Shown in pieces: positions 6,128 through 51,524 of a stretch of DNA of 64,000 nt. How positions within the stretch are numbered: the stretch's first letter is position 1; each line of letters opens with the position of its first letter. The translations under genes were made by a program, and so were the position numbers. The notes below the pieces were generated by a model, which saw nothing but the letters and a program-made list of their open reading frames with translations, was not told where the DNA came from and ran no database searches. The stretch comes from Bacteroidales bacterium (GTDB taxonomy: Bacteria > Bacteroidota > Bacteroidia > Bacteroidales > GCA-2748055): positions 23,471 to 87,470 of the forward strand of contig JAGLOO010000037.1 of NCBI GenBank assembly GCA_023138875.1, given 5' to 3'.

Positions 6128-6294
6128 ACTGCAATCTATTTACGTTCAAAGATGCTTCGCACTAAAGTTTTAAAAATATACCAATGTCATTAGGTAAGAG
6201 CCGGGGGAAAAAGAATCGATTAGCTAATTGATATGATAAAATAGGGTGCCTGACATGACACCCTATTTCATTTTTCATCTAACCATCCCTGTAT

Positions 6295-21991: not shown

Positions 21992-22149
21992 ATCAAAAAC
22001 GATTTCAATCTCTTTTTCGATGAATCCTGTAAGTGGAAGCTTGCAGGATTTTTCTTGTCAGGAGAAGTCTGAGAATTGGTTTTTTTGTCCCAATATTTGC
22101 ACTAAATAAAATTAATCCCTTGAAATTCAAGGGATTATTTAACCTGTGA

Positions 22150-22172
22150 GCGGTCTGGACGGGGCTTGATAC
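22150..22172. repeat. degenerate copy of the tRNA-Asp 3' end (old att scar)
   Basis: GCGGTCTGGACGGG matches 14/14 nt of the repeat at 24331 and 51449, then degenerates (GCTTGATAC vs ACTCGAACC). Preceded by a hairpin (ATCCCTTGAAATTCAAGGGAT), as are the other two copies. Confidence 0.5.
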
Positions 22173-24066: not shown

Positions 24067-24330
24067 CGTTTATTATACTGATTTACAAATCACAAAATAT
24101 TGCATTCCATACTATGGAAGAAGACAGGAGAAAATGATACTGATCTTTCAGTACAGAAGGGCAGATATGCACTTAATAACTATCTTTCTCCGAAATTCAA
24201 GAGAATAAGAGCAATGTGATAGTGGATAATTCAGTGTCTAAAAGAGGGCGAAAAGACAACGGTTGCGGTCTGACTTTTGTATCTAAACGACAAAACCCCT
24301 TGATTTACAAGAGGTTTCGTCTAATTTAAG

Positions 24331-24352
24331 GCGGTCTGGACGGGACTCGAAC
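24331..24352. repeat. distal att direct repeat: 22-bp copy of the tRNA-Asp 3' end
   Basis: GCGGTCTGGACGGGACTCGAAC is identical to 51449-51470, which is the T-loop-to-3'-end part of the intact tRNA-Asp. Confidence 0.85.
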
Positions 24353-32160: not shown

Positions 32161-32955
32161 GTGGAAAGAACAGGATGCGAACCAGGTCCATTTAACTATT
32201 ATGAGATGGTGAAACGTATGAGGGAGTCAATCGCCAAACGTGATGCTTTGAACCAAAAGAGAGAACGAGACAAAAATATTACCGATGTGATCAACTTGCT
32301 TGTCTACGGTCCGGCGGGTCCAAATCAATCGGTTATTGGCGCGCCAAATGGTTACAGGGCATTGGACCGGTTCCGGATGTTGAGCATTGACGGCGAATCA
32401 AAAAATCTACAATTCAAACTTGCCCGTGAGGCCGAAGGTAGGCAGAGAGCGTTTACGAGGGAGCAAGCAGATATCCAGAGAGCCTTCACCGCAGGAAAAA
32501 GGTATCAAGACAAGGTGTATTCCGATAAAATAGGATATATCCTCAAAGGAGTGAGCATCACGCCTGATCTGCATATGAAAATGCTCATGCTGTTGCAGAT
32601 GATGTACGATGGTTTTGTGAACAAACCAAGAGCGCTGAAGGATATTGACATGAATGAAAATGTCCAGGATGAGTCAATACGTGATTTAATTCTACAGCAC
32701 TGGGATGATTTGAAGAAGGTTGTTCCAGAGCTATCCGCAGCGCAGAGCAGGGAGACGATGGTTGAAATATCACAAGCAACCAACCAATCACAAGATAATT
32801 CACAGGCATATGCAAATAGTATTGCAAATGTCATGGCTAATACAGAATACAGTTACCGAAAGAAGTTGAGACTCATTCGTGATGCAGCAATGAATCACAA
32901 CGGGTGGGATAAGGATAAGGCCGAACAGTATGCCAAAGAATTGTTGAAGGATTAA
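32161..32955 (+). CDS. hypothetical protein, paralog A of a tandem pair
   Basis: Shares LDRFRML, EAEGRQR.FT.EQA and KGVSITPDL..KM...LQMMY.G...KPRALKDID.NENVQDESIRDL....WD.LKK.VPELS with the next gene. The first ATG is at 32206 (the track uses GTG at 32161). Confidence 0.55.
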   Translation: MERTGCEPGPFNYYEMVKRMRESIAKRDALNQKRERDKNITDVINLLVYGPAGPNQSVIGAPNGYRALDRFRMLSIDGESKNLQFKLAREAEGRQRAFTREQADIQRAFTAGKRYQDKVYSDKIGYILKGVSITPDLHMKMLMLLQMMYDGFVNKPRALKDIDMNENVQDESIRDLILQHWDDLKKVVPELSAAQSRETMVEISQATNQSQDNSQAYANSIANVMANTEYSYRKKLRLIRDAAMNHNGWDKDKAEQYAKELLKD

Positions 32956-32975: not shown

Positions 32976-34232
32976 ATGTTTCCAGCATACGACGATCAGG
33001 ATAAGCAGAGGATGCAAACGCTATTTAACACAATGAAGGACGTTGAGGTTGCTCCACAGGTAAGAGATGTAGGCCCATTCTCCTCACTGTTCAACTATGA
33101 GCAGGAGAAAGCGCGTCAGGATGAGTCATATGCCAAGCGGGAAGAGGTGAATCAGAAAATTGCACGGGGCAATTCTATCGTTGATGCATTCAGACTGATC
33201 ACCCAAGGGCTTACCGGATCTGCAGGGGCCACTATTCCAAAGGAAGCACCCAACCAATCGGTGATCCGTGCGCTGAATGATTTCATGGTACTGGACAGCG
33301 AGAAAAAGGAAGCGTTAGACCGGTTTCGGATGCTAGGGTTGAATGCCTCGGCTCGTGACCTACAATACAAGCATGGGCTTGAAGCAGAGGGCAGGCAGAG
33401 GGAGTTCACAGGAGAACAGGCAGAGCTTGGCAGGACCTTTCAGGCAGGGGAAGCAGAGAAGGGAAGAGAATTCAAGGCAGGGGAAATGGATATTAGTCGT
33501 GAATTCTCAGCTACAGAGGCAGCGAAAAGGGATAAGGCCAGGGCAGATCAGATTCATCTTACACAGAAAGGCCAGAGAAACCTTGAAAAATACAGGGCTG
33601 ACCAGGGCCATTACAGTTATCAGGACAGGGCATATTCCAATAGAAAATCCTACGACCTCAAAGGAGTAAGCATCACGCCTGATCTTCAAACAAAGATGAT
33701 ACGGGCATTGCAGATGATGTACGAAGGTGATCCTATGAAACCAAGAGCGCTGAAGGATATTGACAGGAATGAAAATGTCCAGGATGAATCTATCCGTGAT
33801 TTGTTCCTGGGAAATTGGGATGAGCTGAAGAAGTTAGTTCCTGAGCTATCTACTGCCACAGGGGTAACACCAGGTCAATCAACCGCACAACCACAACAGC
33901 AACAGAAGCGTAATCCAGCCGAAGGTGATAGTGTGTTACTGGAAAAGAAGCTCAAGGATGCTGCTAGCAGATTCAGCAAGGAGGGCAAACCCCGTAAGCA
34001 GATCAAGGATAACAAACGACCAGGGGTTTCACTTGAAAAGCAAGCAAAGCAGAATGATCGCATTGGCATAATGATGAGGGCGTTTAAAGAATTCGATCCC
34101 GACATTACCTGGGAAGAAGCATATAATGATGCGATGGAATTCCTGTACGGGCATTATCAAAAACGGCAGAGCTTTAATGCGAGTGGTCAGGGGACCATCA
34201 ATCAGTCAATGGCATATTATCCTCCTCAATAA
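32976..34232 (+). CDS. hypothetical protein, paralog B (longer, with internal REF/RTF short repeats and a Q-rich tract)
   Basis: 418 aa. Same conserved blocks as paralog A, plus GRQREFTGEQAELGRTFQAGEAEKGREFKAGEMDISREF and PQQQQK. Confidence 0.55.
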   Translation: MFPAYDDQDKQRMQTLFNTMKDVEVAPQVRDVGPFSSLFNYEQEKARQDESYAKREEVNQKIARGNSIVDAFRLITQGLTGSAGATIPKEAPNQSVIRALNDFMVLDSEKKEALDRFRMLGLNASARDLQYKHGLEAEGRQREFTGEQAELGRTFQAGEAEKGREFKAGEMDISREFSATEAAKRDKARADQIHLTQKGQRNLEKYRADQGHYSYQDRAYSNRKSYDLKGVSITPDLQTKMIRALQMMYEGDPMKPRALKDIDRNENVQDESIRDLFLGNWDELKKLVPELSTATGVTPGQSTAQPQQQQKRNPAEGDSVLLEKKLKDAASRFSKEGKPRKQIKDNKRPGVSLEKQAKQNDRIGIMMRAFKEFDPDITWEEAYNDAMEFLYGHYQKRQSFNASGQGTINQSMAYYPPQ

Positions 34233-34244
34233 AAGGCAGATACA

Positions 34245-37200
34245 ATGATAAATGATCCTCCAAAAAAATCCGGTTTTCAAGAGAAGTATGGATTTGATGC
34301 TTTCAATTCATTACCCACCATTAACACGAATCCCGATCCTGTCCAAACAGGTGTGTTGGGAAGTGAATTTGTTGGTGAGTCGGAGGAGGATAAGCAGTTT
34401 TGGAGGGATTGGAATATAAAAAACCCCGGCGAACAAGCAAAACTGGCGTGGGAGGCTGGAACAAAAGAACTCAAGGGTGGTGTGAAGAACATGATTGCAG
34501 ATGTTGCACCTTTGGTAATGTCAGCGGCCTCACCGGGCACTATTCCCGAAATCTATCAATATGAGGATTGGATACTTGGACTTCAGGAATCTGCGGCAAA
34601 AGACTTTGAAACAGCACCCGAAGGAGCTGGGCTGCTTTATGAAACAGTGAGGATGATGCCACAGATGGTTGGAACAATGGCTGCATTGACAACCACCCCG
34701 TTCACCGGAGGCACATCGATGGCAGCCCTCCCAGGTATACTTGGTATGGCGAATATCGGTATGCTCTCCTCATCGGTATATGGCCGGTCCCTGTATGACT
34801 ATGACCAGTATGTTGCTGAGAAAGGTCTTGAAACCAACCAATTTACACGAAGGGGAGTTGCTGCGGCATCCGCAGCGATGGAGTTTATTGCTGAGAAGCT
34901 GCGATTGGACTTCATGTTGCCAAAAGGCATGGCCGGACGAATGGCATCGCAACTATTTAAATCCGATCCAAGCCTTGCAGACGATGTTATGCGCAAATGG
35001 GCGAAGAATGACCCAAAAGTATATCAGAAGTTTATGGGTTTGGGTAAAACAACCCTTGCAAACATGGGGCAGGAAGGTGCGGAGGAATTTCTTACCGAAG
35101 TGGGACAGTCCATTGCCCAAAATGTTTATTTGCTTGGCGAGGACCGACTTGGAGCGATGGATATTGTTATCAATGCTGGCGAGGCTGCAAAAGGCGGTGC
35201 GATGATGGGTGGGATGCTGGGTCCCGCTTCATACTCATCGAACCAGTTGTATCACAAGATGCGCAAAAACCGGAACGGAGCAACTATTATTGAAACAGAG
35301 GACGGCTCGGTTTACGAATACCTGGGAGTAGACAGTAAAGATCCGAACATGGCAACGGTGATGGATAACAGACTGAATATGACCTCAATCCACAAAGATC
35401 ATATTAAGGATCATCGCACCATGACCGACCAGGAGTTGAGTGAATACCTGAATGTGTACAAAGATTCGCAGGAAAACTTACCACAGCTTGAAGATCAGAT
35501 GCGCCGTAATACCACAAAGCAACACCTTAACAGTGTGGGCCAAAGTATTGTGAACACTGAGGATGGAACACCGCAGGTCAAGGTTGGAAAGAAGCGGAAC
35601 GGTGGCTATGTGTTTATCAAAAGTCAATGGGAGGAGATGCCTGGTCAGACCAAGATGATTGTTGTGGATCCGGAAACCATGGAGCTGGACATGATGGATG
35701 CAAGTCAGATCGGTGAAATACGCACCCAAAGCTATGATTCATGGCTAGAAGTTCAGACCGATCAGATGGTTGGTGTGCAGGACCAGCAGCGAAGTGCGCA
35801 GATGGAACAAGCTGTTGTGGAGGAGCAGATCAAGGATGAGGCCGGGATCCCAGAGTTCAAGGAGGGCGAGAAGATCACATACCAGGACCGTGAGTGGATT
35901 GTTGATGAAGTTGATACGGATGGTACATTGAATGTATACGCCAATGAGGAAGACGGGACCCCTGGGGAAACGATTCCTATTAGTCCTGAAATGCTTTCAG
36001 AAGTAAATAGATACACACCCGAAGCACCTATTACAGAAACAGGGGAGCAGCAGGGCCAACAGAAGGAAAAGATCCTCAATGACGGTAAAAATGATTATCC
36101 GGTAGTTGATGGCAAGATCCAGCAACCATTCACAACTGAGAAAGCAGCGAATTCCCTGGTAAGCAAACTCAAGAATGAATACCCCGGATTGAACTTTACA
36201 GTTGATATTATGGATGATGGGGATCCATTCACTAAGAATGAGTACACAATCACTGTAGAGCCTATAAATATTACCAATGGTGAAGAAACGACCCCAGAGA
36301 CATCCCAGGGAGTCGCCCCGTCGCAAACAGGCGAGGATGAGCTTAAAACCACTGAACCGAGATACTTTAAAGACGAAGAGGATGTTACAAAAGGATATAT
36401 CCAGGGCCGTATCCTTGCAGCGAAATCAGATGGTGATCTCCACGGGTTATCATGGGAGAATGACCCGGAACTGGACGCGATGCGCAAAGAGAAGTTCCCG
36501 GAGGCAGTACCAACATACACATATAATGGCCAGGAGATTGAGCAGGACGTTGCCCGTGGAATTATCGACGGTGCAACAGAGGCCACGGATCTGGAACAAT
36601 TGGTGGTTAAGAACGATGACGCAACCGGTCAGACATATTTGGATAAGATAAGCGAGTTGCAACCTGAGACCGAGGAAGCTCCAGGGGTAGAGCAGGAAGA
36701 AGTAAGTGCACCCATTGACCAATCACAGGAGGATGCTATCAGTGAAGCAGAGGGATTGACACAGGAGCCAGCTGCTGAAGAAACTACTCAGATTGAATCT
36801 ACTCCCGTTCAGGAAACAGAAGTAGAGGCCACACCCGCAAAACCCGTAACCGAAACAGAGCAGAAATTAGCAGCAGCAGAGGCCGAAGTAGATCAGAACC
36901 CTTCAGAAGCAAAAATCGAGGCCGGCAACTACAAAAAAGGCCATGTTTCCATCCAGGGACTTGATATCACTATTGAGAACCCCAAGGGATCCACCAGGTC
37001 CGGGACTGATCAGGATGGTAAGAAGTGGAGCCAGATTATCAATAATACCTATGGATACTTCAAACGGTCCATGGGTAAAGACGGTGATCAGATAGATGTG
37101 TTCCTGGGCGAAAACATTGAGTCAGATAAGGTATTTGTGGTTGACCAAGTAGATACGAAAACCGGAGCCTTTGATGAGCATAAGACCATGGTCGGATTTG

Positions 37201-40200
37201 ATAGTGTTGAGGAGGCCCGTGAAGCCTATCTATCTAACTATGAGGAAGGGTGGCAGGGACTTGGTGCTATCACCGAGATGTCAATGGTGGAGTTTAAAAA
37301 GTGGGTGGATAGTGGTACCCGAAAGCGCAAGCCGGTCAGCGAGATGAAGACTCTCAAGACCGAAACACCTGTCATTGACAAAGAAAAGGCTCACAACCGA
37401 TTGATTGAATTGGTTCGCGCATACAACAAGATCCCGAAAAGCCATACTGTAAAACGATCCGGAGCAATACAGACCATCAATAACCTTACCGGACAGCTTG
37501 GATACTCCATAACAAGAAATGACAAAGGCAAGCTCGTACCGCTAAACGAGAACAGCAAGCAGATACGCACAATCTCAGATCAGGTTGATTATATCTCCCT
37601 GGTAGAGATCGAGGATGAAGCGTTTACATCCTTTGCACATGATTTCTTGGTGAATGAAACGATATTGCACAACTTGGATGTTCCTATTTATGGTAAAGCA
37701 CTTTTCAAAGCAGCCAAAGATGCTATCAGTGGCAGAAAGAACGCTGAGAGTGACTTATTGATCCGAAACATTCAGGAGATGTACGATTCTGATAGTTTTA
37801 ATTATAGAGCCGGGGAGGAAACAGGTGCGTTCAACGTAACAGTAACAGAGGTAAACGACCTGATCGCAGAGCCAAAATTGATTAAATTTGTAGAAGAGAA
37901 TGGTGCTCTTGATATTACCAATATCGACAAAGCACTCGATGCTGGGCTTGTAACGCAGGATGAGTATGAAACAGTCAAAAAACAATTCGAAGATGAACTC
38001 AACCAACGAGAGCAAATCGAACGAGAATCCGATACCGAGCTTGGAGTCACAGAAGATGGTGACCGCGTTCAGGATACTCAGGGCCAGGAAAGCCAAGAAA
38101 TAGATAACGAATCGACCCAGGCGCTCGAATCCGAGATTGCCACCTTAAAAGAATCCCTTTCCGAAACCCGGAAAGCCAGGGAGTCCAAGAAAAAAGAACT
38201 TTCCAAGAGATTGCACCAGCAGCAGAGCATGTTCGCCGGTGAGAAACTTGCACGGATGGATCAAAACCTGTTCGAAGTTAAGCAGGATGGATCCAGGGAG
38301 AATATCGATAAGATCCTGGGTGAGTTTGATAACACTATTGCCGGGATTGAGAACCAGATCGAGCAAAAGGAGAAGCAGCTGGCCACCGCGAAAAAAGAGT
38401 CTGCAGGGCAATTGGAGCTGGAACCCACCAAGAAAACTGAAAAAATTGAAGATTTCGGAGAGAAGATCGGTGGGGCGCGGAAGGATCAGTGGGCCCAAAG
38501 CCTTGCATCACTCAACAAGCTGACCGATGATGACCTCATTTCCCTTCCGCTTGTTAAAGCAATTCCCGTACCCGATTACAAAGAACTGGTTGCATCCGGT
38601 AAGATGAACAAAAAAGAGGTTGCCCTACTTCACTATTACCGGACCAACATGAGCCGCAAGCCGGCAGAAACAGCACAGAACTACAAAAAAGCACGATGGC
38701 TCAAAGAGGCTAACCTGTACAAGCAAGTCTATGCCTGGATGCTGGATAAGAAAGGGTTTGAAGAGACTCACGGCAAAGCGTTCGTTGATTTGATGGATGA
38801 GCGTATATCATTCCATGCAGCAAAGGAGATTAAGGAATTCACAAAAATGTTGGAAGCACTTGGTTTCCCGGAAACCTTTGATGGTAACTTGAAGAAATTC
38901 AAGATAATGAAGTTCGATAGCCGCGAGGACTTCACTATTATAAATGGTCGGAAGATTATCGCAGATTTCAAAACCTATGATGAGGCTATCGCTGCATTGA
39001 AACACATTCTGGAGGAAACCGGGAACCAGCGCAGCAGGGTGACATTCGATGCCTGGAGCTTGAGTGGTAAGAAAGGTGTGATGGTGGGTAAAAAGGTTGG
39101 TCCGAGGAAATTCATTACCCTGGCCGGGCCTTTTGAAACAGGTAAGGAAGCGTTCAATTATATTAAGGATAATCAGGAAACCCTTGAGCAACAGCTTGCT
39201 GAAGAAAAAGTAATTCCCGCAGAACGACCGGATGTTGCAGAGGAGCGATCAGGCAAGGATCACCGTAACGGGAAGGATGTTACGCCCGATATGTTCCAGG
39301 AAGCGTTTGGGTTCCGGGGTGTGGAGTTTGGCAACTGGGTGGAGAATGCAAAACGACAGGGTGATCTTAACCTTGCTTATGATGCGCTGATGGACCTGGC
39401 AGAGATAACAAACATCCCATCCCGTGCAATATCTCTTGGTGGTGAGCTGGGCCTTGCGTTCGGAGCAAGAGGTAAGGGAGGAAAAGACAGATCCAGCGCA
39501 CATTATGAGCCTGATAAGATTGTGATAAACCTGACAAAAGTGTGGGGCGCAGGATCACTCGCACATGAATGGTGGCATGCCATTGATAATTATTTCTCCC
39601 GCCAAAGAGATAAGAAGCACGACTATCTGACCGAAAAACCTCGTTCGTTGCTTGTGAAGAAAGATGGTGAGTGGGTAGATGATGTTTCTGTTCGCCCGGA
39701 AGTTGTTGGCGTATTTTATGATGTGGCAAAAGCAATCAAGGATAGCGGGATGGTTGAAAGGGGCACCGAGTTAGACAGGCGCAAGACGAAAGATTACTGG
39801 TCACAGATGCGCGAGATGTCCGCACGGTCCTTTGAATCATATGTGAAGGATAAGCTGGATGAGCAGGGGATTAAAAACGATTACCTGGTCAGCTTCAAGG
39901 ATATGGTGGATTATATCGTTCAGACAGGCGCCGCAGAGGATGTGTACCCCTACCCCACCAAAGGAGAGCAACCGACTATCAACAAGTCTTTTGAGAATCT
40001 GTTTGATGTGATTGAGACGGTTAACGATGAGGCTGGTAATACTGTTCTGTTCAAAGTCGAAGAGCAAGCTGGTTCCTCCCAAGAGGGGGCATTCCCAGGC
40101 ACAGATGTACGCGATGTAGCTGAGCAGTTATCCAAACAGTTTAATACACCCATTGAGGTTGTCATAACCCGTCAAGAGCTGCCACCACATATTCAGAGAG

Positions 40201-43200
40201 CGATTAAGGATGACACACGCATCCCTGGCGTTTATGATGTGCAGAACGATAAGGTGTACCTGATCGCTCGTGAGGTCAAAAGCAAAGAGGAGGCACAGCA
40301 AACAGTATTCCATGAGATTGTTGGCCACAAAGGATTGAGGGAATTACTTGGGCATGAGTATGATCAGATGTTGACAGATGTGTACAACAGCATGTCGGAA
40401 GGTGACATATCCACCATGTCACGGGTGTACGGCACCACAGATCAGCTTGAGATAGCTGACGAGTATATTGCCCGGATAGCAGAGGATAATTCCAATCCGT
40501 CCATCATTGATAAGTTCGTTGCGAAGGTGCGCAGACTGATCCGCAAGGTATTTAAGATCAACTACACCAAAAAGGATATCATTGATCTGTTAAGTAAATC
40601 CAGGGAAGGATTGAAGAAAAAAGCAAGACCACAATTTGCTGGTGAATACCTGGATGTGCAGTTTAAGGCTGAAGAGGAAGGAGAAAAGAAGGACGGGCCG
40701 CCGATAAACATATTACAGAGCAAAGCCCAAAAGTTCAGGGAGAACTGGCAAGACAGGATGCTTTCTGTGCGAAATCTCCAGAAGCAAGTAGAAGAAAGAG
40801 GCGGGAAGATTACCGATTTTTCCAATGCCTACGAACGGGAGAACGCATCACACCAAATTGTCAGGGAGGCTATTGAAAGGTTCGATGATAAATATGAACT
40901 CCCATTATTGAAGGCTATCAGCGAAATTGAAAAAAGTGCAGATATGAACTTCAAAGAGGTCAATGAGTACATGAAGGCCAAACATGCTCTTGAGAGGAAT
41001 CTGGTAATGGCAAAACGAAACCCGAAATCAAATAAAACAAACTGGTCCGGGATCGAAACCGTGGATGCAGCAAAAACAGTAAGGAAGTATGAATCGAGAC
41101 TAACAAAGGATCAGATTAATGATTTTTGGAAAGCCGTCAATAACGCCACTCTATTTTCACTTGACAGGGCTATGGCAGATGGATTCATCTCGAAAGATTT
41201 GCATGATAAACTCACCAAAGGGGAAGATGCTTACAAGTTTTACGTTCCGTTAAGGGGCTGGGAGCCGTCAGAAACAGACGCGCTGATCGATTATATGGAA
41301 ACAGACGTAGGTAGGATTATGAACCCGTATCGTTCAGCCAAAGGTCGCACAACAATGGCAGACGACCCATTGAAGTATATCACAAATATGGCCCACACAG
41401 CTATTATTATGGGCGAGAAAAACCGTGTCAAGCAATATGCATCAGCCCTTGTGAGAAACAACAAAGGAATGAACGATCTATTTTCATTCAAGAAAGTGTA
41501 TTACGTGTGGGATGGCACATATGATGAGAATGGTAAAAAGAATCATAACGAAACGGTAATAAAACCTCCGCAGGAATTGTTTGATGAGGGTAAAGTAGAA
41601 ATCAAATTCAACTCCGACTACATGATCCGCAGGCCGGTCTCACACGCAAAAGAGCATGAGGTGGATATGTGGCAGGGTGGTGAAAAATATGTTCTGATCC
41701 TGCCGGCAGATGTGGCCAATGCGCTGAATAAAACACCATCACCAATAGAGGAAATGACTCGAAATGCAATGCGGTCAAAATGGACAGCTTGGGCACCGAT
41801 GTTTACAAGGTGGATAGCATCTGAATTCACCAGCAGGAATCCTGCTTTTATTCCGATCAACCAAATGCGTGATGTTGGATATGCGATGATGGCACACGCT
41901 ATCAAGGGAGAAAGGGGTGATGCTGGAAAATTCATTATGAACATGGGGAAGGCCCGATCAGCTATTATAAGAGATTTAAAAGGGAAGCTCGATCATAATA
42001 GTGAAGTCGGTAAGATGTATCAGGATTTTGTCCGGTTAGGTGGTCCTACAGGATGGATTCACCTCAGAGATGTTGAACAGTTGGAGAAAGATATCCAGAA
42101 GAAACTAAAAAGGTTAGAAGGCGGGAAGCCTGGTGCAAAGCAAGTGAGAGATTTATACCTAAAAGCAGGTGAGCTCCTGGAGCATTGGGCTATTCGATCT
42201 GAGAACCTTTCACGTTTCGCAACATATATCACAGCCATTCAAAACGGGAAAGGATCCAAACAGGCAGTTCAGGCAGCGAAGGATATAACCGTTAACTTTA
42301 ACCGGAAAGGACGAAACACATCGCTTGCCGGGGCATTGTTCGTATTCTTTAATGCAGGTGTCCAAGGTGGTCATAATTTCCTGAAACTAGGTAAAGATAA
42401 TCCTGGTAAGTTTATTGGTGTGGGAGCTGGATTCATGGCATTAGGCTTCCTGACCGCACTATTCAATCACCTGTGGGCCGGTGATGATGACGATGATACG
42501 ATGAACGATTACCAGGAGTTGAACGATTATCATAAGTTCAATAGTCTGGTCATACCTGTACCTGGGAAGGATCGATTCGTTAATATCCCCCTTCCCTTTG
42601 GTTTCAGGGCATTCAACGCATTAGGGGTACTTGCATATCAAAGCCTCGTATCGAAGGAGAAAGATATTGGAGAAGCGGTGAAGGATGGTCTGTCAAATAT
42701 AGGTACGGCTCTTTCCCCGGTAAATCCTATTGAATTTATTAACGAGGATGGAACCTTGACGGCCAGGCCGATTATACCAACAATCGGGGTACCGATTTTT
42801 GATATAGCAACAAATGAGGATTTTGCCGGTAACACTATAACCAGAACACCATTTACAACAGCGCAAGAAGGGTACCTGGCTGACTCCGGACTAGGGAAGA
42901 AGCATGTGAATAAGCAACTGAAATGGCTCACAGACGAGTTATTCAAACTTGGTGGAGGTCATGTAGCCGAAGATGACGATAAGCGGAATAAATATTATAT
43001 CGATGATGATGGCAAAAGTAAGCATGTTAGTGAAATATTTGATTGGAACCCGTCAAAAATCGAACATATGTTTGAGTATTTATTCGCAGGTCGAGGTAGG
43101 TTCTGGAATAATACACTCAAAACCAGTACCGGGATTCTAGAAGGTGCGCGTGATGTTATTGAGGGTGATAAGGGGATTGAGAAGATACTTTCCAATGTGA

Positions 43201-43550
43201 ACCCCAACACGGTTCCTGTGTTCCGGAGGCTGTATGTACAATCCTGGCAGAACTCTGTTTACACAAGGTATTACGATTTACTGAATTATATGGATGAGTA
43301 CGAGGCTGCCCTTAACACTGAATCCAGAAAAACCGGTATTGATAATGAGGATCTGATTGACCCATACCATCGGTTCGTTAAGGATGAAATCAAATATCTG
43401 AATAAAGACCTGAAATATATCGATGATCAACTTGACCTGTTGGATCCGGATAAAAACGAAAAGCTGAAAAAGCAGAGAGAATTATATATCAGGAACTTCA
43501 ATGATATGATAATGCGCTTCCAAGAGAAATATGACATAGATATGAAATAG
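34245..43550 (+). CDS. 3101-aa multi-domain 'polyvalent-like' protein (pyrophosphatase-like module, two HExxH zincin-like modules, terminal hydrophobic segments)
   Basis: Single uninterrupted 9306-nt ORF. YGYFKRSMGKDGDQIDVFLG (family-I PPase-like DGDxxDV). AHEWWHAID at nt 39564-39578. FHEIVGHKGLRELLG at nt 40311-40328. EDFGEKIGGARKDQW at nt 38448-38492. TM-like FIGVGAGFMALGFLTALF followed by DDDDD. Confidence 0.8.
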   Translation: MINDPPKKSGFQEKYGFDAFNSLPTINTNPDPVQTGVLGSEFVGESEEDKQFWRDWNIKNPGEQAKLAWEAGTKELKGGVKNMIADVAPLVMSAASPGTIPEIYQYEDWILGLQESAAKDFETAPEGAGLLYETVRMMPQMVGTMAALTTTPFTGGTSMAALPGILGMANIGMLSSSVYGRSLYDYDQYVAEKGLETNQFTRRGVAAASAAMEFIAEKLRLDFMLPKGMAGRMASQLFKSDPSLADDVMRKWAKNDPKVYQKFMGLGKTTLANMGQEGAEEFLTEVGQSIAQNVYLLGEDRLGAMDIVINAGEAAKGGAMMGGMLGPASYSSNQLYHKMRKNRNGATIIETEDGSVYEYLGVDSKDPNMATVMDNRLNMTSIHKDHIKDHRTMTDQELSEYLNVYKDSQENLPQLEDQMRRNTTKQHLNSVGQSIVNTEDGTPQVKVGKKRNGGYVFIKSQWEEMPGQTKMIVVDPETMELDMMDASQIGEIRTQSYDSWLEVQTDQMVGVQDQQRSAQMEQAVVEEQIKDEAGIPEFKEGEKITYQDREWIVDEVDTDGTLNVYANEEDGTPGETIPISPEMLSEVNRYTPEAPITETGEQQGQQKEKILNDGKNDYPVVDGKIQQPFTTEKAANSLVSKLKNEYPGLNFTVDIMDDGDPFTKNEYTITVEPINITNGEETTPETSQGVAPSQTGEDELKTTEPRYFKDEEDVTKGYIQGRILAAKSDGDLHGLSWENDPELDAMRKEKFPEAVPTYTYNGQEIEQDVARGIIDGATEATDLEQLVVKNDDATGQTYLDKISELQPETEEAPGVEQEEVSAPIDQSQEDAISEAEGLTQEPAAEETTQIESTPVQETEVEATPAKPVTETEQKLAAAEAEVDQNPSEAKIEAGNYKKGHVSIQGLDITIENPKGSTRSGTDQDGKKWSQIINNTYGYFKRSMGKDGDQIDVFLGENIESDKVFVVDQVDTKTGAFDEHKTMVGFDSVEEAREAYLSNYEEGWQGLGAITEMSMVEFKKWVDSGTRKRKPVSEMKTLKTETPVIDKEKAHNRLIELVRAYNKIPKSHTVKRSGAIQTINNLTGQLGYSITRNDKGKLVPLNENSKQIRTISDQVDYISLVEIEDEAFTSFAHDFLVNETILHNLDVPIYGKALFKAAKDAISGRKNAESDLLIRNIQEMYDSDSFNYRAGEETGAFNVTVTEVNDLIAEPKLIKFVEENGALDITNIDKALDAGLVTQDEYETVKKQFEDELNQREQIERESDTELGVTEDGDRVQDTQGQESQEIDNESTQALESEIATLKESLSETRKARESKKKELSKRLHQQQSMFAGEKLARMDQNLFEVKQDGSRENIDKILGEFDNTIAGIENQIEQKEKQLATAKKESAGQLELEPTKKTEKIEDFGEKIGGARKDQWAQSLASLNKLTDDDLISLPLVKAIPVPDYKELVASGKMNKKEVALLHYYRTNMSRKPAETAQNYKKARWLKEANLYKQVYAWMLDKKGFEETHGKAFVDLMDERISFHAAKEIKEFTKMLEALGFPETFDGNLKKFKIMKFDSREDFTIINGRKIIADFKTYDEAIAALKHILEETGNQRSRVTFDAWSLSGKKGVMVGKKVGPRKFITLAGPFETGKEAFNYIKDNQETLEQQLAEEKVIPAERPDVAEERSGKDHRNGKDVTPDMFQEAFGFRGVEFGNWVENAKRQGDLNLAYDALMDLAEITNIPSRAISLGGELGLAFGARGKGGKDRSSAHYEPDKIVINLTKVWGAGSLAHEWWHAIDNYFSRQRDKKHDYLTEKPRSLLVKKDGEWVDDVSVRPEVVGVFYDVAKAIKDSGMVERGTELDRRKTKDYWSQMREMSARSFESYVKDKLDEQGIKNDYLVSFKDMVDYIVQTGAAEDVYPYPTKGEQPTINKSFENLFDVIETVNDEAGNTVLFKVEEQAGSSQEGAFPGTDVRDVAEQLSKQFNTPIEVVITRQELPPHIQRAIKDDTRIPGVYDVQNDKVYLIAREVKSKEEAQQTVFHEIVGHKGLRELLGHEYDQMLTDVYNSMSEGDISTMSRVYGTTDQLEIADEYIARIAEDNSNPSIIDKFVAKVRRLIRKVFKINYTKKDIIDLLSKSREGLKKKARPQFAGEYLDVQFKAEEEGEKKDGPPINILQSKAQKFRENWQDRMLSVRNLQKQVEERGGKITDFSNAYERENASHQIVREAIERFDDKYELPLLKAISEIEKSADMNFKEVNEYMKAKHALERNLVMAKRNPKSNKTNWSGIETVDAAKTVRKYESRLTKDQINDFWKAVNNATLFSLDRAMADGFISKDLHDKLTKGEDAYKFYVPLRGWEPSETDALIDYMETDVGRIMNPYRSAKGRTTMADDPLKYITNMAHTAIIMGEKNRVKQYASALVRNNKGMNDLFSFKKVYYVWDGTYDENGKKNHNETVIKPPQELFDEGKVEIKFNSDYMIRRPVSHAKEHEVDMWQGGEKYVLILPADVANALNKTPSPIEEMTRNAMRSKWTAWAPMFTRWIASEFTSRNPAFIPINQMRDVGYAMMAHAIKGERGDAGKFIMNMGKARSAIIRDLKGKLDHNSEVGKMYQDFVRLGGPTGWIHLRDVEQLEKDIQKKLKRLEGGKPGAKQVRDLYLKAGELLEHWAIRSENLSRFATYITAIQNGKGSKQAVQAAKDITVNFNRKGRNTSLAGALFVFFNAGVQGGHNFLKLGKDNPGKFIGVGAGFMALGFLTALFNHLWAGDDDDDTMNDYQELNDYHKFNSLVIPVPGKDRFVNIPLPFGFRAFNALGVLAYQSLVSKEKDIGEAVKDGLSNIGTALSPVNPIEFINEDGTLTARPIIPTIGVPIFDIATNEDFAGNTITRTPFTTAQEGYLADSGLGKKHVNKQLKWLTDELFKLGGGHVAEDDDKRNKYYIDDDGKSKHVSEIFDWNPSKIEHMFEYLFAGRGRFWNNTLKTSTGILEGARDVIEGDKGIEKILSNVNPNTVPVFRRLYVQSWQNSVYTRYYDLLNYMDEYEAALNTESRKTGIDNEDLIDPYHRFVKDEIKYLNKDLKYIDDQLDLLDPDKNEKLKKQRELYIRNFNDMIMRFQEKYDIDMK

Positions 43551-44104: not shown

Positions 44105-44112
44105 TATATTTG
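44105..44112 (+). promoter_or_regulatory. candidate -7 box (TATATTTG) for the XRE gene
   Basis: Matches TAnnTTTG 16 nt upstream of the ATG at 44128. Forms an inverted repeat with the divergent -7 box. Confidence 0.35.
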
Positions 44113-44127
44113 TAGAAAGACTTACTC

Positions 44128-44415
44128 ATGAATTACCTGCGTATAAAGGATCTACTGAAAGAGAAGGGATTAACCGCCAAGGACCTAGCCCTGGATCTCA
44201 ATATCACTGAGAATGGGATCAGCATGATTGTGAACGGTAAAAGACAGCCCCGCTTCGAATTGCTTCAGCAAATCGCAGACCGGTTAGATCTTGAGATTTG
44301 GCAGCTGTTCAAAGGGTCAGACAAGGCCGTGAAGGGGTGTATCGAGTACCAAGGGATTCTTTACCACATACAGACGAAGCAGGGGCTGGAGAGGCTTCTG
44401 AAGTTAATTGAGTGA
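44128..44415 (+). CDS. XRE-family helix-turn-helix transcriptional regulator
   Basis: LRIKDLLKEKGLTAKDLALDLNITENGISMIVNGKRQPRFELLQQIADRL is a canonical HTH_3 pattern. Confidence 0.8.
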   Translation: MNYLRIKDLLKEKGLTAKDLALDLNITENGISMIVNGKRQPRFELLQQIADRLDLEIWQLFKGSDKAVKGCIEYQGILYHIQTKQGLERLLKLIE

Positions 44416-44687: not shown

Positions 44688-45257
44688 GTGAAAGGAGTAA
44701 TCATTGTTGCCGCAGTAATAATTGTTCTGGTGATCATTCTGTCGATTAATCCCAAATCAAAGACAAGTAATTCAAATTCTACAGGAACTCGACCTGATAG
44801 ACAGGAGAGGATGAGGCGAGAAGCTCTTATACCGGTATTTCAGAGGCATAAGCAAATCTTAAACGAAAGCATAGGAATCATTGAATCATCTAAAAAGATC
44901 GATACTATAATAGGAAGGAAGCAGGTTGTCCTTGAGAAGCTAGATTGGTTTGACAAGAACTCTATTCCGGGTACTGAATTTGTTTTAATCCCCACCCCAA
45001 AAGATAGTCGACCAAAATTTATGAGCATCTATAATGCTAGGCTTGTTGATGTTGCTGAACATCTGGTGGTGGAAGCAGAGAGTAAAACGAAATCCTTAAA
45101 GACTAAATCTGGAAAGCAGAATCATATCAATAAAACTATCGATGCCATTCAGAAAATCACATCAGAGTTATATGCCGAAACGGAGAATTTCGAGGAGGCG
45201 GTTACTGAAATTCAAAAAGCATATAATAAATTGGAAAACCTAGATCTATCAGTATAA
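44688..45257 (+). CDS. N-terminally membrane-anchored helical protein
   Basis: GTG start. VIIVAAVIIVLVIILSI is a TM helix followed by ~150 aa of helical sequence. No motif recognised. Confidence 0.45.
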   Translation: MKGVIIVAAVIIVLVIILSINPKSKTSNSNSTGTRPDRQERMRREALIPVFQRHKQILNESIGIIESSKKIDTIIGRKQVVLEKLDWFDKNSIPGTEFVLIPTPKDSRPKFMSIYNARLVDVAEHLVVEAESKTKSLKTKSGKQNHINKTIDAIQKITSELYAETENFEEAVTEIQKAYNKLENLDLSV

Positions 45258-45394
45258 CATCAAACTGAATCATGAAACACCTCCGATCAATCACAATCGC
45301 TCTCCTGGCTATTGAATCAGGGGCCTGTTCACATCATTATGGGGTGAGCTATTGGCTGTGTGTGGATTGATTGGCAAATCATCTATAATCGAAT

Positions 45395-45901
45395 ATGGTA
45401 GAACTAACTGATGACTATCCAAATGGCTTAAGTGATGAAAATTTGTTGGCCAAAATTCAGGAATTTTCAAGTCTGGGATCGGGCTTTGGCAAAAGATCCC
45501 CAACATTTCAAGAAAGAGGGTATTATCTTCAGATGGCTCAGGTTGGTCAAAGTGAATATACGAGTCGGATCCAGGTAAGATTCGCAGATGAGACAAAATC
45601 CTTGAAAGCTGAGATATCTGAATTAAGAAAAAGCAATCAGAAATTCAGCAGGAAGGCAACTAGATTAAGCAGAGTTACTATTGGCTTCGCGATTGGCATG
45701 ATACTCTTAGCTGGGACAACTGTTTGGTATTCACAAAGGGATATGGAATCAGATCAGATCTGGAGAGATGATCAAATGACAGAATTGAAGAAAAATAATG
45801 AGTTTCTCCAGGAGCAGATCCGGATCAATGAGGAGTTGAATGGGAATATTCTCAGGTTGCTTGAACTGCAAGACCGAAGTGGTGAAATTGAATCAGAATA
45901 A
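45395..45901 (+). CDS. single-pass membrane protein with a coiled-coil tail
   Basis: 168 aa. Central TM (VTIGFAIGMILLAGTTVWY) followed by a heptad-like ELKKNNEFLQEQIRINEELNGNILRLLEL. Stop lies 6 nt before the TIR gene start. Confidence 0.5.
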   Translation: MVELTDDYPNGLSDENLLAKIQEFSSLGSGFGKRSPTFQERGYYLQMAQVGQSEYTSRIQVRFADETKSLKAEISELRKSNQKFSRKATRLSRVTIGFAIGMILLAGTTVWYSQRDMESDQIWRDDQMTELKKNNEFLQEQIRINEELNGNILRLLELQDRSGEIESE

Positions 45902-45907
45902 TGTTTT

Positions 45908-46861
45908 ATGGATAAGCAGAAGAACATATTCATCAGCTACTCAAGCAATGATCAGGACAAAGTTGGTATTTTAAAAGAATTGATAAAGATAAAAAATGGG
46001 CTAAATCCCATTGTCATTGCTGATAAACGAGAAGCCCAAAAGCCTCTAACTGACAAAGTAATTGATGGGATAGAAAAATCTGAAATAGTCGTTCCCATTA
46101 TAACGAGTAGATCAATTCATACACAATGGATGAACCAGGAGATCGGTTATTCCCTAGCGTTAAGTAGAAAGGTTACAGCTATTGTGGAAAGAGAACTACT
46201 CGATGATTTAAAAGGATTCATCCATAAACAGGTTGATCTTCCATATAATTTTTCAAGGAGTAATAATAGTGATGAAGAAAACAAAGGATTTGAATCTGCA
46301 TGCATACTTCTGGTCAACGATATCCTATTTAGCAAAGAAAAATCAATGACGTTGCCAAATCTTGCTGACAAGCATATGAATAAAATTAAGGAGAAGGTTG
46401 AAAGAGAAAAACTGGAAAGTGAAAAGGAGAGAATGCTCAATAGCCAAGAAATAGTGACTATTGCAAATCAAGCCGTGGATAATGAGCTTCTTCCTTATGT
46501 GCATGAGCAAAAGGATAAATGGAATCAGATAATTGGGAAGAATGTGCCCTATGAAACTAGTCCTAATGATCCAAATGGCATAATACTTAATCTAAGAGGA
46601 TTTGCTCTAAGTTTTGTTTGGAGGCAACCACATAGAAATTCAATTGAATCGGCCAAATTAACAGTAAGCCTTTGGGACGGTAGAATGTCTTTCATTCAGT
46701 TTAGATACCCGATTGAAGATCGTCCTGATATTATAAACGAAATGAAGTGTCAACCTTATTTAGACGATGAACTTCGTTTTAAGTGGAACAACTCAACGGA
46801 ATTGATGGATTCAAAACAAGTCGTTGATGTTGTATTCGAGTGGTTAGCTGAAGTATTCTAA
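45908..46861 (+). CDS. TIR-domain protein with an unknown ~170-aa C-terminal domain
   Basis: NIFISYSSNDQDKVGILKELI...KSEIVVPIITSRSIHTQWMNQEIGYSLAL matches the bacterial TIR (TIR_2/DUF1863-like) pattern, including the S..W...E putative catalytic Glu. Confidence 0.75.
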   Translation: MDKQKNIFISYSSNDQDKVGILKELIKIKNGLNPIVIADKREAQKPLTDKVIDGIEKSEIVVPIITSRSIHTQWMNQEIGYSLALSRKVTAIVERELLDDLKGFIHKQVDLPYNFSRSNNSDEENKGFESACILLVNDILFSKEKSMTLPNLADKHMNKIKEKVEREKLESEKERMLNSQEIVTIANQAVDNELLPYVHEQKDKWNQIIGKNVPYETSPNDPNGIILNLRGFALSFVWRQPHRNSIESAKLTVSLWDGRMSFIQFRYPIEDRPDIINEMKCQPYLDDELRFKWNNSTELMDSKQVVDVVFEWLAEVF

Positions 46862-46878
46862 TTTATATCTTTCGTGCA

Positions 46879-47124
46879 ATGTACGCCCTCACCTTCAAAC
46901 GATCCCGGTCAAAGCACATCTTGAAAGAACTCAACCATGTTGTGTCAATGGGCGAATCCTGGGATGCGACAACGGAAAAACTCATGATTACAGAGAAGGC
47001 CCTGTCCGTCTGTCGGTGGACCGTGGAGAAGCTGCAGAAAAAGATTTCTGTGCTCAGGCAGGAAATTATTGTGATTATTCCTGAGTGGAGGGAGTGGAAA
47101 AAGAATAGACAATACCAAATATAA
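46879..47124 (+). CDS. doubtful small ORF in a GC-richer spacer
   Basis: 81-aa ORF. Similar-length ORFs also exist on the opposite strand here, so coding status is uncertain. Confidence 0.25.
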   Translation: MYALTFKRSRSKHILKELNHVVSMGESWDATTEKLMITEKALSVCRWTVEKLQKKISVLRQEIIVIIPEWREWKKNRQYQI

Positions 47125-47164
47125 GAGCACAATTGTATTGCATGTAAGTTAAAATGACCAACTT

Positions 47165-47827
47165 ATGGAAGGAATGAAAATAAATTTAATAATTGCTATT
47201 ATAGGAGCGATTGTTACCTCTACCATCTCTGGTGTAAGCACTTACGTATCTCAAGATAACAAGTTTGGGGAACAAATTGAAAATTTATCCAAAGAAAGCA
47301 ACTCTAAAGGCCATCAAATTGAGATACTTACGGATGAAAATTCGACTTTGAAAAACGAAATCAATTCAAAAACGGAAAGTCATAATGCATTAATGGCAGA
47401 ACACAATGATTTAAAAGTAAAATACGCTAGATGCATCTCATCAGAAGGATCAATTACTGCAGTTGGGACAATTGATACGCGGGTTTATCAGGGACAATTA
47501 AAGACTGGAGATGAACTTGAATTTAAATTAACATCTAGTTCATTATTTATAAAAATAATCCGAGTTTCTGATAGTGGACCGATAATTTCTATTGCTGGTT
47601 GTGAAAACTATGTTACCGTTAACGAAGTAAGAATGCCAATGAATAATGAAAATCACTATCTCATTAAACCTCAATCTCCTTTAAGAGTTAGATTTACTGT
47701 AGGTTCCTGTGAAGACAATGAGAATATTGAGCCATCTCAAGTTGAAGAAATAATACTATTACTCAGGCAATTTAATGTAGATGAGCAAACCATTCAATTA
47801 GAGTATAATAGAAAATTTTTATTCTGA
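47165..47827 (+). CDS. membrane-anchored coiled-coil protein with a C-terminal beta-rich domain
   Basis: N-terminal TM (INLIIAIIGAIVTSTISGV), then the coiled segment ILTDENSTLKNEINSKTESHNALMAEHNDLKVK. Confidence 0.5.
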   Translation: MEGMKINLIIAIIGAIVTSTISGVSTYVSQDNKFGEQIENLSKESNSKGHQIEILTDENSTLKNEINSKTESHNALMAEHNDLKVKYARCISSEGSITAVGTIDTRVYQGQLKTGDELEFKLTSSSLFIKIIRVSDSGPIISIAGCENYVTVNEVRMPMNNENHYLIKPQSPLRVRFTVGSCEDNENIEPSQVEEIILLLRQFNVDEQTIQLEYNRKFLF

Positions 47828-47831
47828 ATTC

Positions 47832-48209
47832 ATGAAAAAAGCTACGTTAATATTTATCATTTTAGGTATTGTGGCGGCTAGTTGTGTCGCTCCAAAAAAA
47901 TTTCAAGCAACAACTGTAAACCTAAATAATGAGATTGATGTTTTAAGAAGTGAGACCAGAGTTCTTCGAAATGATAATTCCTCATTAAAAACGGAAATAA
48001 ATAGTATAAAGAATCAGATCTACAGACTTAACGCAGAAATTAAAAGCCTAGAGAATCAACTTCAATCCGATAAAAAAAAGCACAATGAGGATATTCAACA
48101 ACTAAATCAGCAGATTGAAAATTTTGAAACAAGAGATAGGAATTTAAGAAATTTGATTACAACCCTCCGGATTGAAGTTGCCTCATTAATGGCAGAAGTG
48201 AATAACTAA
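47832..48209 (+). CDS. coiled-coil lipoprotein
   Basis: MKKATLIFIILGIVAASC is a lipoprotein signal with lipobox. The rest is heptad-like (LRNDNSSLKTEINSIKNQIYRLNAEIKSLENQL). Start is 4 nt after the previous stop. Confidence 0.55.
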   Translation: MKKATLIFIILGIVAASCVAPKKFQATTVNLNNEIDVLRSETRVLRNDNSSLKTEINSIKNQIYRLNAEIKSLENQLQSDKKKHNEDIQQLNQQIENFETRDRNLRNLITTLRIEVASLMAEVNN

Positions 48210-48934: not shown

Positions 48935-48950
48935 ATCCCATAAATTTGGG

Positions 48951-49407: not shown

Positions 49408-49989
49408 ATGAGTATCCATGACTTTAATGACCGGTTTGGCGTTTCCGAACCCACCCCTACAGAATTCGAGAAGGCTGTAATGAAGCTGTTCATGTCACTA
49501 CCAGATGAACTAGTTAGTAAAAGCATCGAACATAATGTAAAAATACCCGGAATCGATGGTATTTATCAAATCGATATCAAGTTGACGTTTGAAGTTTTTG
49601 GCGCCAATTTTCTGGTATTGATTGAATGTAAACGATACTCCTCACCGGTGAAGCGAGAAGCAGTTCAAATTCTACATTCAAAGCTTTCAAGTCTAGGTGC
49701 ACAAAAAGGAGTCCTTGTGTCTACATCAGGATTTCAAAGAGGTGCAATTCAATATGCAAAAGAACACGGAATAGCACTGCTCCGGATTGCTGCGGGTAGA
49801 ATGACCTATGAAACTAAAAATATTTTCAGTGATGGAGAGTACCAGTATTTTAACGGAACGGAGGCCTTCCCAATATATCGAATTGAAGAATCCAGTCCTG
49901 GTTCAATTTCAATTACGATGCTAATTGATGATCATATTAACGAATTTGGAGTTTCCCTATTCAAATCAAGTGAAAATGAAAATAATTAA
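49408..49989 (+). CDS. Mrr-like (PD-(D/E)xK) restriction endonuclease-domain protein
   Basis: FEKAVMKLF...GIDGIYQIDIKL...FLVLIECKRYSSPVKREAVQILHSKL...GVLVSTSGFQRGAIQYAKEHGIAL is collinear with the Mrr catalytic domain (D...ExK). Confidence 0.75.
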   Translation: MSIHDFNDRFGVSEPTPTEFEKAVMKLFMSLPDELVSKSIEHNVKIPGIDGIYQIDIKLTFEVFGANFLVLIECKRYSSPVKREAVQILHSKLSSLGAQKGVLVSTSGFQRGAIQYAKEHGIALLRIAAGRMTYETKNIFSDGEYQYFNGTEAFPIYRIEESSPGSISITMLIDDHINEFGVSLFKSSENENN

Positions 49990-51405: not shown

Positions 51406-51432
51406 CCCCTGTAATCTTTTGAACTACAGGGG
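51406..51432. terminator. bidirectional hairpin terminator just downstream of the tRNA-Asp 3' end
   Basis: CCCCTGTA-atcttttgaac-TACAGGGG, flanked by an A-run and CTTTTTCT. Confidence 0.6.
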
Positions 51433-51448
51433 CTTTTTCTGTCTAATT

Positions 51449-51470
51449 GCGGTCTGGACGGGACTCGAAC
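51449..51470. repeat. proximal att direct repeat (within the tRNA-Asp 3' end)
   Basis: GCGGTCTGGACGGGACTCGAAC is identical to 24331-24352. Confidence 0.85.
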
Positions 51471-51524
51471 CCGCGACCTCCGGCGTGACAGGCCGGCATT
51501 CTAACCAAACTGAACTACCAGACC
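51450..51524 (-). tRNA. tRNA-Asp (anticodon GUC)
   Basis: Reverse complement folds as GGTCTGG-TA-GTTC-AGTTTGGTTA-GAAT-G-CCGGC-CTGTCAC-GCCGG-AGGTC-GCGGG-TTCGAGT-CCCGT-CCAGACC-G. 75 nt, CCA not encoded. Confidence 0.9.

Follow-up and report, generated by a model that had tools for sequence, protein, structure and literature searches.

Among the described bacterial TIR proteins with which the gene considered here can be compared, SpbK of ICEBs1 is a single TIR protein encoded on an integrative element, is both necessary and sufficient for defence, and docks through its non-TIR domain on the phage portal, which leads to clustering of its TIR domains (PMC12847820). For ThsB, the TIR protein of Thoeris, another published account (PMC11312562) describes some members that directly sense phage capsid proteins. 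The window analysed here is a stretch of 64,000 nucleotides (nt) from a Bacteroidales contig (JAGLOO010000037.1, assembly GCA_023138875.1), and all coordinates below are counted from its first letter. Its gene at 45908 to 46861 (plus strand), the core of the feature, encodes a 317-residue protein whose N-terminal TIR domain is followed by a C-terminal domain (CTD; residues 152-317, 46361 to 46858, plus strand) that is presumed to be sensory or regulatory. We favour, with moderate confidence, the explanation that this protein works on its own, sensor and effector in a single polypeptide, and belongs to the defence cargo of an integrative element inserted at a tRNA-Asp gene. Immediately upstream lies a gene for a 168-residue protein with one transmembrane (TM) helix (45395 to 45901, plus strand), a lineage-specific neighbour and possibly an accessory, whose relation to the TIR protein is the main point at which alternative explanations arise.

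A sequence-only reading of the window had proposed that the N-terminus of the 317-residue protein is a TIR domain, and the profile and structural comparisons agree that it is. The Pfam family TIR_2 (PF13676) matches residues 7-91 (45926 to 46180, plus strand) with 37.7 bits against a curated cut-off of 28, and the precomputed annotation of the homologues is likewise PF13676. In NCBIfam the only match is to the TIR portion of the retron-TIR model, and it is weak and partial. The AlphaFold2 model, built from 26 family members, has a mean predicted local distance difference test score (pLDDT) of 85 and places the whole TIR fold, which is of the flavodoxin-like alpha/beta type, at about residues 1-145. 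Foldseek matched this N-terminal half to solved TIR domains with E-values of 6e-5 to 2e-3 and a probability of 1.0, among them RPS4/RRS1, Bacillus cereus ThsB, BtpA, AbTir, SARM1, TIR-STING (9lmq, 7un8) and the SpbK filament (9phb). Nearly all of the 21 PDB matches at E <= 1e-3 are TIR domains, with target-relative TM-scores of at most 0.67; the one non-TIR match at that threshold is the CMP N-glycosidase MilB, which is structurally related. Within the family alignment (A1), W74 and E78, which lie in the motif QWMNQEIG, are invariant in 26 of 26 sequences, as are F8-I-S-Y11, N76-Q-E78-I-G80 and L101-K-G-F-I-H106. The codons for W74-M-N-Q-E78, a WxxxE motif with the putative catalytic glutamate, occupy 46127 to 46141 (plus strand), and the glutamate that had been singled out earlier from the letters QEIG is this E78. 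When A1 was used as a profile against the sequences of the PDB, it returned only marginal matches to the TLR2 TIR domain, in which W74 and E78 align with the W-x-x-x-E of TLR2. Going by SARM1 and AbTir, we take the position of E78 to be that of the catalytic glutamate of NAD-cleaving TIR domains.

The CTD is joined to this TIR domain by a linker (residues 145-152) with a pLDDT below 50, and the predicted template-modelling score (pTM) of the full-length model, 0.49, points to two domains without rigid packing against each other. Modelled alone with AlphaFold2, the CTD reaches a pLDDT of 89 and a pTM of 0.81, and its predicted fold is a long helical hairpin, then a six-stranded sheet, then a C-terminal helix. 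The sequence-only reading had been unable to place this part of the protein, and the searches leave it equally without a home: the roughly 165 residues have no match in Pfam, PADLOC, PHROG or NCBIfam, and Foldseek found nothing significant in the PDB (best E 0.21) or in BFVD (best E 0.056). The top PDB matches, Pur-alpha and p32, were considered as fold relatives and rejected, their probability being 0.2 or less, and the uncharacterised phage proteins that head the BFVD matches were likewise rejected, with E-values of 0.056 or more and query-normalised TM-scores below 0.4. With the CTD alone as query, phmmer was run exhaustively against 1.84 billion representative proteins and returned 8 representatives, all 317-335 residues long; since the CTD always lies at the same C-terminal position in them, all are TIR-CTD proteins. 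The profile of a CTD alignment (A4) run against a collection of 5.8 billion proteins returned only the query, the candidate list probably having been saturated by coiled-coil words. The CTD is a previously undescribed domain that is modelled with confidence and has no known structural relative.

The relatives of the protein show that this TIR subtype is used with many different tails. The 5.8-billion-protein collection contains 119 TIR relatives, about 35 of them full length (320-348 residues, 31-39% identity, 86-99% coverage) and mostly from Bacteroidota metagenome-assembled genomes, with Marinoscillum sp. 108 also represented. The regions outside the TIR domain of the 119 relatives fall into the CTD family, with 46 members, seven further multi-member families with 19, 12, 10, 9, 7, 5 and 2 members, and singletons, so that TIR domains of one subtype (40-55% identity) occur with at least eight unrelated kinds of C-terminal extension, each of them a multi-member family. 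In the TIR-CTD family, identity over the whole protein is 32-37%, with nearly all invariant positions in the TIR core, and the CTDs are 17-27% identical to the CTD of the window. The CTD thus changes far more quickly than the TIR domain, as an arms race would lead one to expect. A constant TIR head with swappable, fast-evolving tails is the pattern expected of an effector that is joined to alternative sensors.

At the loci of these relatives no partner gene recurs. Loci were fetched by single look-ups and from GTDB genomes (35), IMG/VR (3) and JGI metagenomes (76), and all cargo proteins of the window were compared by tblastn with 123 loci. For the neighbour survey, 41 loci were used in which the TIR-CTD gene is complete or almost so, and these reduce to about 35 once duplicate contigs are taken out; all open reading frames (ORFs) within 2.5 kb of that gene were clustered. 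No neighbour recurs across the roughly 35 non-redundant loci, and where a cluster does span several loci, their contigs are duplicates or syntenic (L002/L003/L007/L060 and L008/L012/L065). Most relatives are more than 60 nt from their neighbours or have neighbours on the opposite strand. A same-strand gene ends within 10 nt upstream in three relatives, and it is a different gene each time: in L004 it encodes a TIR/SEFIR protein, in L068 a Cds6_C-like protein and in L070 a 415-residue protein without assigned family. By PADLOC and Pfam, no family occurs in more than three of 112 neighbours at these loci, and the bSEFIR models of PADLOC match 2 of the 112. The neighbours do include many defence genes, namely Avs2, Kiwa KwaA/KwaB, bSEFIR, IetA, PD-Lambda-3, E1-E2, components of type I, II and IV restriction systems and several PADLOC candidate families. 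Given the absence of a recurring neighbour and the many defence neighbours, the TIR-CTD family behaves as a single-gene system that is often found in defence islands. A tblastn search of 50,697 phage records with the TIR protein gave no match, and an IMG/VR scan for relatives of the TIR gave only three distant matches, which are TIR-only. As an observation on the metagenomic locus L004, its TIR/SEFIR gene (5262-5996; TIR_2 2.2e-18) stands 4 nt before the TIR-CTD relative (6001-6987), which may represent an occasional two-TIR arrangement.

The gene of the window itself sits on an integrated element. A 22-nt exact repeat, GCGGTCTGGACGGGACTCGAAC, at 24331-24352 and 51449-51470 bounds about 27 kb; the right attachment-site copy is the 3' end of a tRNA-Asp(GTC) gene (51449 to 51524, minus strand; identified by ARAGORN), the target of integration, and the left copy is adjoined by a tyrosine integrase gene (24518 to 25789, plus strand; Pfam Phage_integrase 7.2e-19 and Phage_int_SAM_5). 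Between 44 and 51 kb the G+C content is down to 0.33-0.40, compared with 0.43-0.49 for the core of the element and 0.45-0.51 for its right flank. The repeat, the integrase and the drop in G+C content place the TIR gene in the AT-rich distal cargo of the element, the mobile setting that the sequence-only reading had described. Other cargo includes an XRE-type helix-turn-helix (HTH) gene (44128-44415) and several small membrane or coiled-coil proteins. A 193-residue stand-alone protein with the Mrr_cat restriction-endonuclease fold is encoded at 49408-49989 on the plus strand (Pfam 2.1e-15; PADLOC mREase_IV 5e-9), and this Mrr-type nuclease is probably a second defence gene of the cargo.

Our scans of the element also bear on a signalling role for the protein. 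Between 44.1 and 51.1 kb, the Pfam and PADLOC scans took in the ORFs of at least 120 residues and, in addition, the 95-residue HTH gene at 44128; in the rest of the element, PADLOC covered eight ORFs at 25.8-34.2 kb and two ORFs of a remnant at 22.2-24.0 kb, and Pfam covered the integrase, a 3101-residue protein and most ORFs of the PADLOC set. Among these scanned ORFs nothing matched ThsA (SIR2/SLOG or Macro-TM), a cyclase, Argonaute or a STAND NTPase, in keeping with the earlier statement that no partner of the Thoeris, cyclic-oligonucleotide-based anti-phage signalling system (CBASS), Pycsar, Argonaute or STAND kind is nearby. One alternative explanation is that the protein is an orphan ThsB-like signal generator, making a messenger of the cyclic ADP-ribose (cADPR) type that activates an unlinked effector, in other words Thoeris in trans. 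ThsB structures are indeed among the Foldseek matches, the 317-residue protein reaches 21.3 bits with ThsB_TIR (PF08937), for which the cut-off is 21.2, and its ThsB-type matches in PADLOC are weak (best E 4.6e-8); SpbK, moreover, produces N1-cADPR, the receptor of which, if any, is unlinked (PMC12847820). However, the ThsB matches are confined to the generic TIR core, no ThsA was found among the scanned ORFs, and no family occurs in more than three of the 112 neighbours, whereas in Thoeris the genes for the TIR protein and the effector are described as forming one operon (PMC12847820). We regard such a role as quite unlikely.

The stand-alone sensor-effector explanation is supported by the resemblance of the TIR domain to NADase TIRs (AbTir, BtpA, ThsB, SpbK) together with the invariance of W74 and E78, by the roughly 35 loci without a recurrent neighbour, the defence-island settings and the swappable tails, and by the precedent of SpbK and the position of the gene in distal cargo close to an Mrr-type nuclease. 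The steps that we infer are NADase activity, a phage trigger and an abortive outcome of infection. The CTD, held on its flexible linker, would be the input and would keep the protein inactive before the trigger appears. It would then bind a trigger from the phage, probably a structural protein that forms multimers, so that the TIR domains could cluster and form composite active sites that would use E78 to hydrolyse or cyclise NAD+. The resulting loss of NAD+ would starve the infected cell and the infection would be aborted. The 168-residue membrane protein would be no general component of this mechanism but either a bystander in the cargo slot or an accessory of a small sub-lineage.

The sequence-only reading had instead coupled the TIR protein to this membrane protein. 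The three ORFs on which it relied are present, including a 189-residue ORF with a GTG start and a hydrophobic N-terminus at 44688-45257, and the 6 nt between the stop of the membrane-protein gene, which ends at 45901, and the ATG at 45908 are as read. The 168-residue protein is single-pass, as had been said; its helix, however, is central rather than N-terminal (residues 94-113, 45674 to 45733, plus strand; VTIGFAIGMILLAGTTVWYS), and coiled-coil-like sequence lies on both sides of it. As a general association the coupling is largely unsupported: a homologue of the membrane protein occurs at only one of the 119 TIR-relative loci (L046) and at none of the roughly 35 non-redundant full-length TIR-CTD loci, and in the tblastn comparison with the 123 loci its homologues appear only in L043-L047, which had been fetched via the membrane protein itself. 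The products of 44688, 47165, 47832, 48404, 48951 and 50637 have no homologue in the same 123 loci.

The membrane protein belongs to a very small family. Only four homologues (41-54% identity) were found among the 5.8 billion proteins, all on short metagenomic contigs, and profile scans of JGI metagenome contigs and IMG/VR added no further members, which leaves a family of five. What follows the membrane-protein gene differs among them. In L046, whose membrane protein is 41% identical to that of the window, a 9-nt gap is followed by a TIR domain of the same family (59% identity over 158 residues, up to the end of the contig). In L045, where the membrane protein is 48% identical to that of the window, an overlapping ORF lacks a TIR domain, and its match to the profile of the family lies in the CTD (hhalign probability 97%, E 2.9e-11), with 18-23% identity to the CTD of the window. 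In L043 and L044 a 6-nt gap is followed by a 220-residue membrane protein that weakly resembles DUF4760, and in L047 the downstream gene encodes an unrelated protein with an N-terminal TM helix. The downstream gene thus carries a TIR domain in 2 of the 5 (window, L046), is CTD-only in 1 of the 5 (L045) and encodes an unrelated membrane protein in 2 of the 5. This sample is tiny and its members are not independent, L045 and L046 coming from one sample. In L043 the DUF4760-like gene (753-1415) is followed by three proteins (including 1463-2380) without Pfam match, which may be another uncharacterised cargo module; a 305-residue protein of this contig was considered as a hidden TIR protein and rejected, hhalign against A1 giving no match.

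The way in which the membrane protein is conserved is informative about what it might do. In the alignment of the five proteins (A3) the N-terminal part is variable, whereas the TM helix and an acidic tail that reaches about residue 147 are nearly invariant, TTIWYSQRDMESDQTWRDDQMTELKKNNELLQEQIR. Only 31-77% of the identical residues in this conserved 3' part use the same codon, and because the synonymous sites have diverged, the conservation reflects selection on the protein; a recently exchanged block of DNA was considered as its origin and rejected on the same ground. Seven lysine or arginine residues precede the helix and the sequence after it is net acidic, so that the positive-inside rule predicts an N-in/C-out orientation. 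With this orientation the conserved part would lie outside the cytoplasm, which would leave the variable N-terminal part alone able to contact a cytoplasmic TIR-CTD protein. The N-terminal types are mosaic, that of the window resembling L043 and that of L046 resembling L047, and they do not co-vary with the downstream gene: the type of the window also stands beside the DUF4760-like gene of L043, and the type of L046 also stands beside the unrelated gene of L047.

These data can be set against an alternative in which the two genes form a membrane-coupled system, the 168-residue protein sensing an envelope event or tethering the TIR-CTD protein and controlling it via the CTD. The short gaps in the window and in L046, the L045 membrane protein followed by a CTD protein without TIR domain, and a helix and tail that are constrained as protein would all be expected of such a pair. 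On the other hand, the membrane protein is missing from the full-length TIR-CTD loci and from every TIR locus but L046, two of its five relatives precede unrelated membrane proteins, one of them DUF4760-like, and the part that is predicted to face the cytoplasm is the variable one. None of the 119 TIR relatives is fused to the 168-residue protein or to a TM domain. Some of the co-occurrence may also be synteny by descent. Directly upstream of the membrane-protein gene lies a 32-residue ORF (45272-45370, plus strand; MKHLRSITIALLAIESGACSHHYGVSYWLCVD), the last 16 residues of which, GACSHHxGVxYWLCxD, are kept in L045 with synonymous changes; the L045 counterpart (about 74-312) is a 78-residue lipoprotein that ends in this motif and is weakly DUF3761-like (E 0.003, below the cut-off), and the ORF of the window may be what is left of a truncated gene or may encode a tiny lipopeptide. 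That this small ORF is common to the window and L045 suggests that a longer block was inherited by descent. We consider a two-gene system unlikely, although a lineage-specific partnership between the TIR protein and the membrane protein is possible. A related proposal is that the membrane protein and the CTD together make up a membrane-linked input module that reports an envelope event such as adsorption or DNA injection, in which case the CTD proteins, with or without TIR domain, would be the cytoplasmic clients of the membrane protein. Both parts of this proposal seem rather improbable to us; if it were true, it would amount to an envelope-triggered TIR defence, a mode not described for TIR systems.

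The same adjacency invites two further explanations. TIR NADases are intrinsically toxic, and a gene on an integrative element with a tightly linked small upstream gene could in principle encode the toxin of an addiction or stabilisation module, with the neighbour as antidote, or serve some other NAD-related role. Most relatives, however, lack a tightly linked small antitoxin candidate and some occur off mobile elements beside housekeeping genes, and a protein whose conserved part is extracytoplasmic would be an odd antitoxin for a cytoplasmic enzyme, which makes this explanation very unlikely. Alternatively, the adjacency could be a by-product of recombination at a cargo slot, the membrane gene marking the edge of a variable region, and this would be compatible with the stand-alone explanation. 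It is suggested by the different downstream genes of the five family members, by their upstream genes, which also differ except for the small ORF in common with L045, and by the mosaic N-terminal types. The diverged synonymous sites nevertheless speak against recent exchange of a DNA block, and a slot does not explain why three of five occupants carry a domain so rare that it has 8 representatives among 1.84 billion proteins; as an account of the adjacency we find it distinctly improbable.

Several points weigh against the stand-alone sensor-effector explanation. Some relatives lie among housekeeping genes and not in a clear defence island; in L008 and L012, for instance, the gene follows dnaK. 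That only 6 nt separate the TIR gene from the membrane gene suggests that the two are expressed together, and because the CTD is so rare, TIR- or CTD-bearing genes downstream of three of the five membrane-protein genes exceed chance. The genomic evidence is also compatible with a signalling role; SpbK itself makes cADPR. On transcription, a scan for sigma-70 promoters and terminators, a type of scan ill-suited to Bacteroidota, gave a background level, and for the -7 motif of Bacteroidota, TAnnTTTG, the window shows no enrichment (48 observed, 52 expected). On the plus strand this motif occurs at 44105, before the HTH gene, and next only at 48941, a spacing that is compatible with one long transcript without proving it. 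Tight gene spacing alone is an insufficient basis for calling a two-gene system here, since the pair is not conserved when seen from the TIR side and only weakly so from the side of the membrane protein.

The remaining genes of the cargo and of the element were noted as follows. The TIR gene is followed by a 303-nt gap (46862-47164) that by eye is more G+C-rich than its surroundings and could be an insertion remnant or a regulatory region; an 81-residue ORF within it (46879-47124) has no Pfam match. Beyond the gap lies a pair of plus-strand genes (47165-47827 and 47832-48209), 4 nt apart, that have a similar coiled-coil motif in common. The 220-residue product of the first has a TM helix at its N-terminus, a coiled coil, and a C-terminus rich in beta structure, and the second encodes a 125-residue lipoprotein-like coiled-coil protein that begins MKKATLIFIILGIVAASC and has a weak match (7.9e-6) to a Rz-like spanin PHROG, one of many coiled-coil matches. 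The interior of the element encodes a primase-polymerase/AAA protein and, at 34245-43550 on the plus strand, the 3101-residue polyvalent protein with InPase (2.6e-57), LPD5, LPD1 and LPD38 domains, which takes up one third of the element; genes for a capsid, a terminase or conjugation were not recognised in the set of scanned ORFs. The adjacent ORFs 32161-32955 and 32976-34232 are linked by a 236-nt direct repeat of 78% identity (32500-32735 and 33615-33850) and probably have a paralogous domain in common; both are without a match in Pfam, PHROG and PADLOC. Besides the copies at 24310-24352 and 51428-51470, the tRNA-Asp 3' end occurs a third time, in degenerate form, at 22129-22171, which suggests a remnant of about 2.2 kb from an earlier tandem insertion, the two minus-strand ORFs of which (22244-23014 and 23008-24006) have no Pfam or PADLOC match. 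Housekeeping genes to the left of the element (16-21 kb) include those for rubrerythrin, a flavin reductase and a methyltransferase.

If the stand-alone sensor-effector explanation is correct, at least 46 proteins (in a collection clustered at 90% identity), mostly from Bacteroidota, would join the few TIR proteins that appear both to sense and to kill alone, and one TIR core with at least eight C-terminal domains would offer a panel for learning how different inputs switch a TIR NADase and what each of them recognises. Among the described systems, BtpA/TcpB and AbTir, TIR proteins with coiled-coil regions, have structurally similar TIR NADase domains and the same WxxxE-type motif. Their TIR domain, however, is C-terminal, they have no sheet-containing domain, and they have been studied as virulence factors or NADases. 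The TIR-STING and TIR-SAVED effectors of CBASS have the same order of domains as the protein of the window, an N-terminal TIR domain followed by a C-terminal ligand sensor that drives TIR oligomerisation, and TIR-STING matches over the TIR domain; in contrast, the CTD has no STING or SAVED fold match, and no cyclase is found nearby or recurs at the homologous loci. With Thoeris ThsB the likeness is a TIR_2 or ThsB_TIR core with a conserved glutamate and weak profile and structure matches, whereas ThsA is absent from the scans of the window and from the roughly 35 homologous loci, the profile matches are marginal, and the protein described here has an extra domain of 165 residues.

The closest parallel is with SpbK (YddK) of B. 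subtilis ICEBs1, a TIR NADase that acts as a single gene by abortive infection. In both proteins a flexible linker connects the TIR domain to an input domain that is not a TIR, both are encoded on an integrative element, and SpbK needs no partner, just as the family of the window has no recurrent neighbour in about 35 loci. They differ in that SpbK has an N-terminal four-helix bundle, its TIR domain being C-terminal, while the TIR domain of the window protein is N-terminal and its input domain, a hairpin and a six-stranded sheet of about 165 residues, is unrelated to the SpbK bundle. The host of SpbK is a Bacillus and that of the window protein belongs to the Bacteroidota, and the latter is known here from its sequence and from models. 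On our best reading, the TIR-CTD protein belongs with the single-protein TIR sensor-effectors and follows the logic of SpbK with a new sensor domain.

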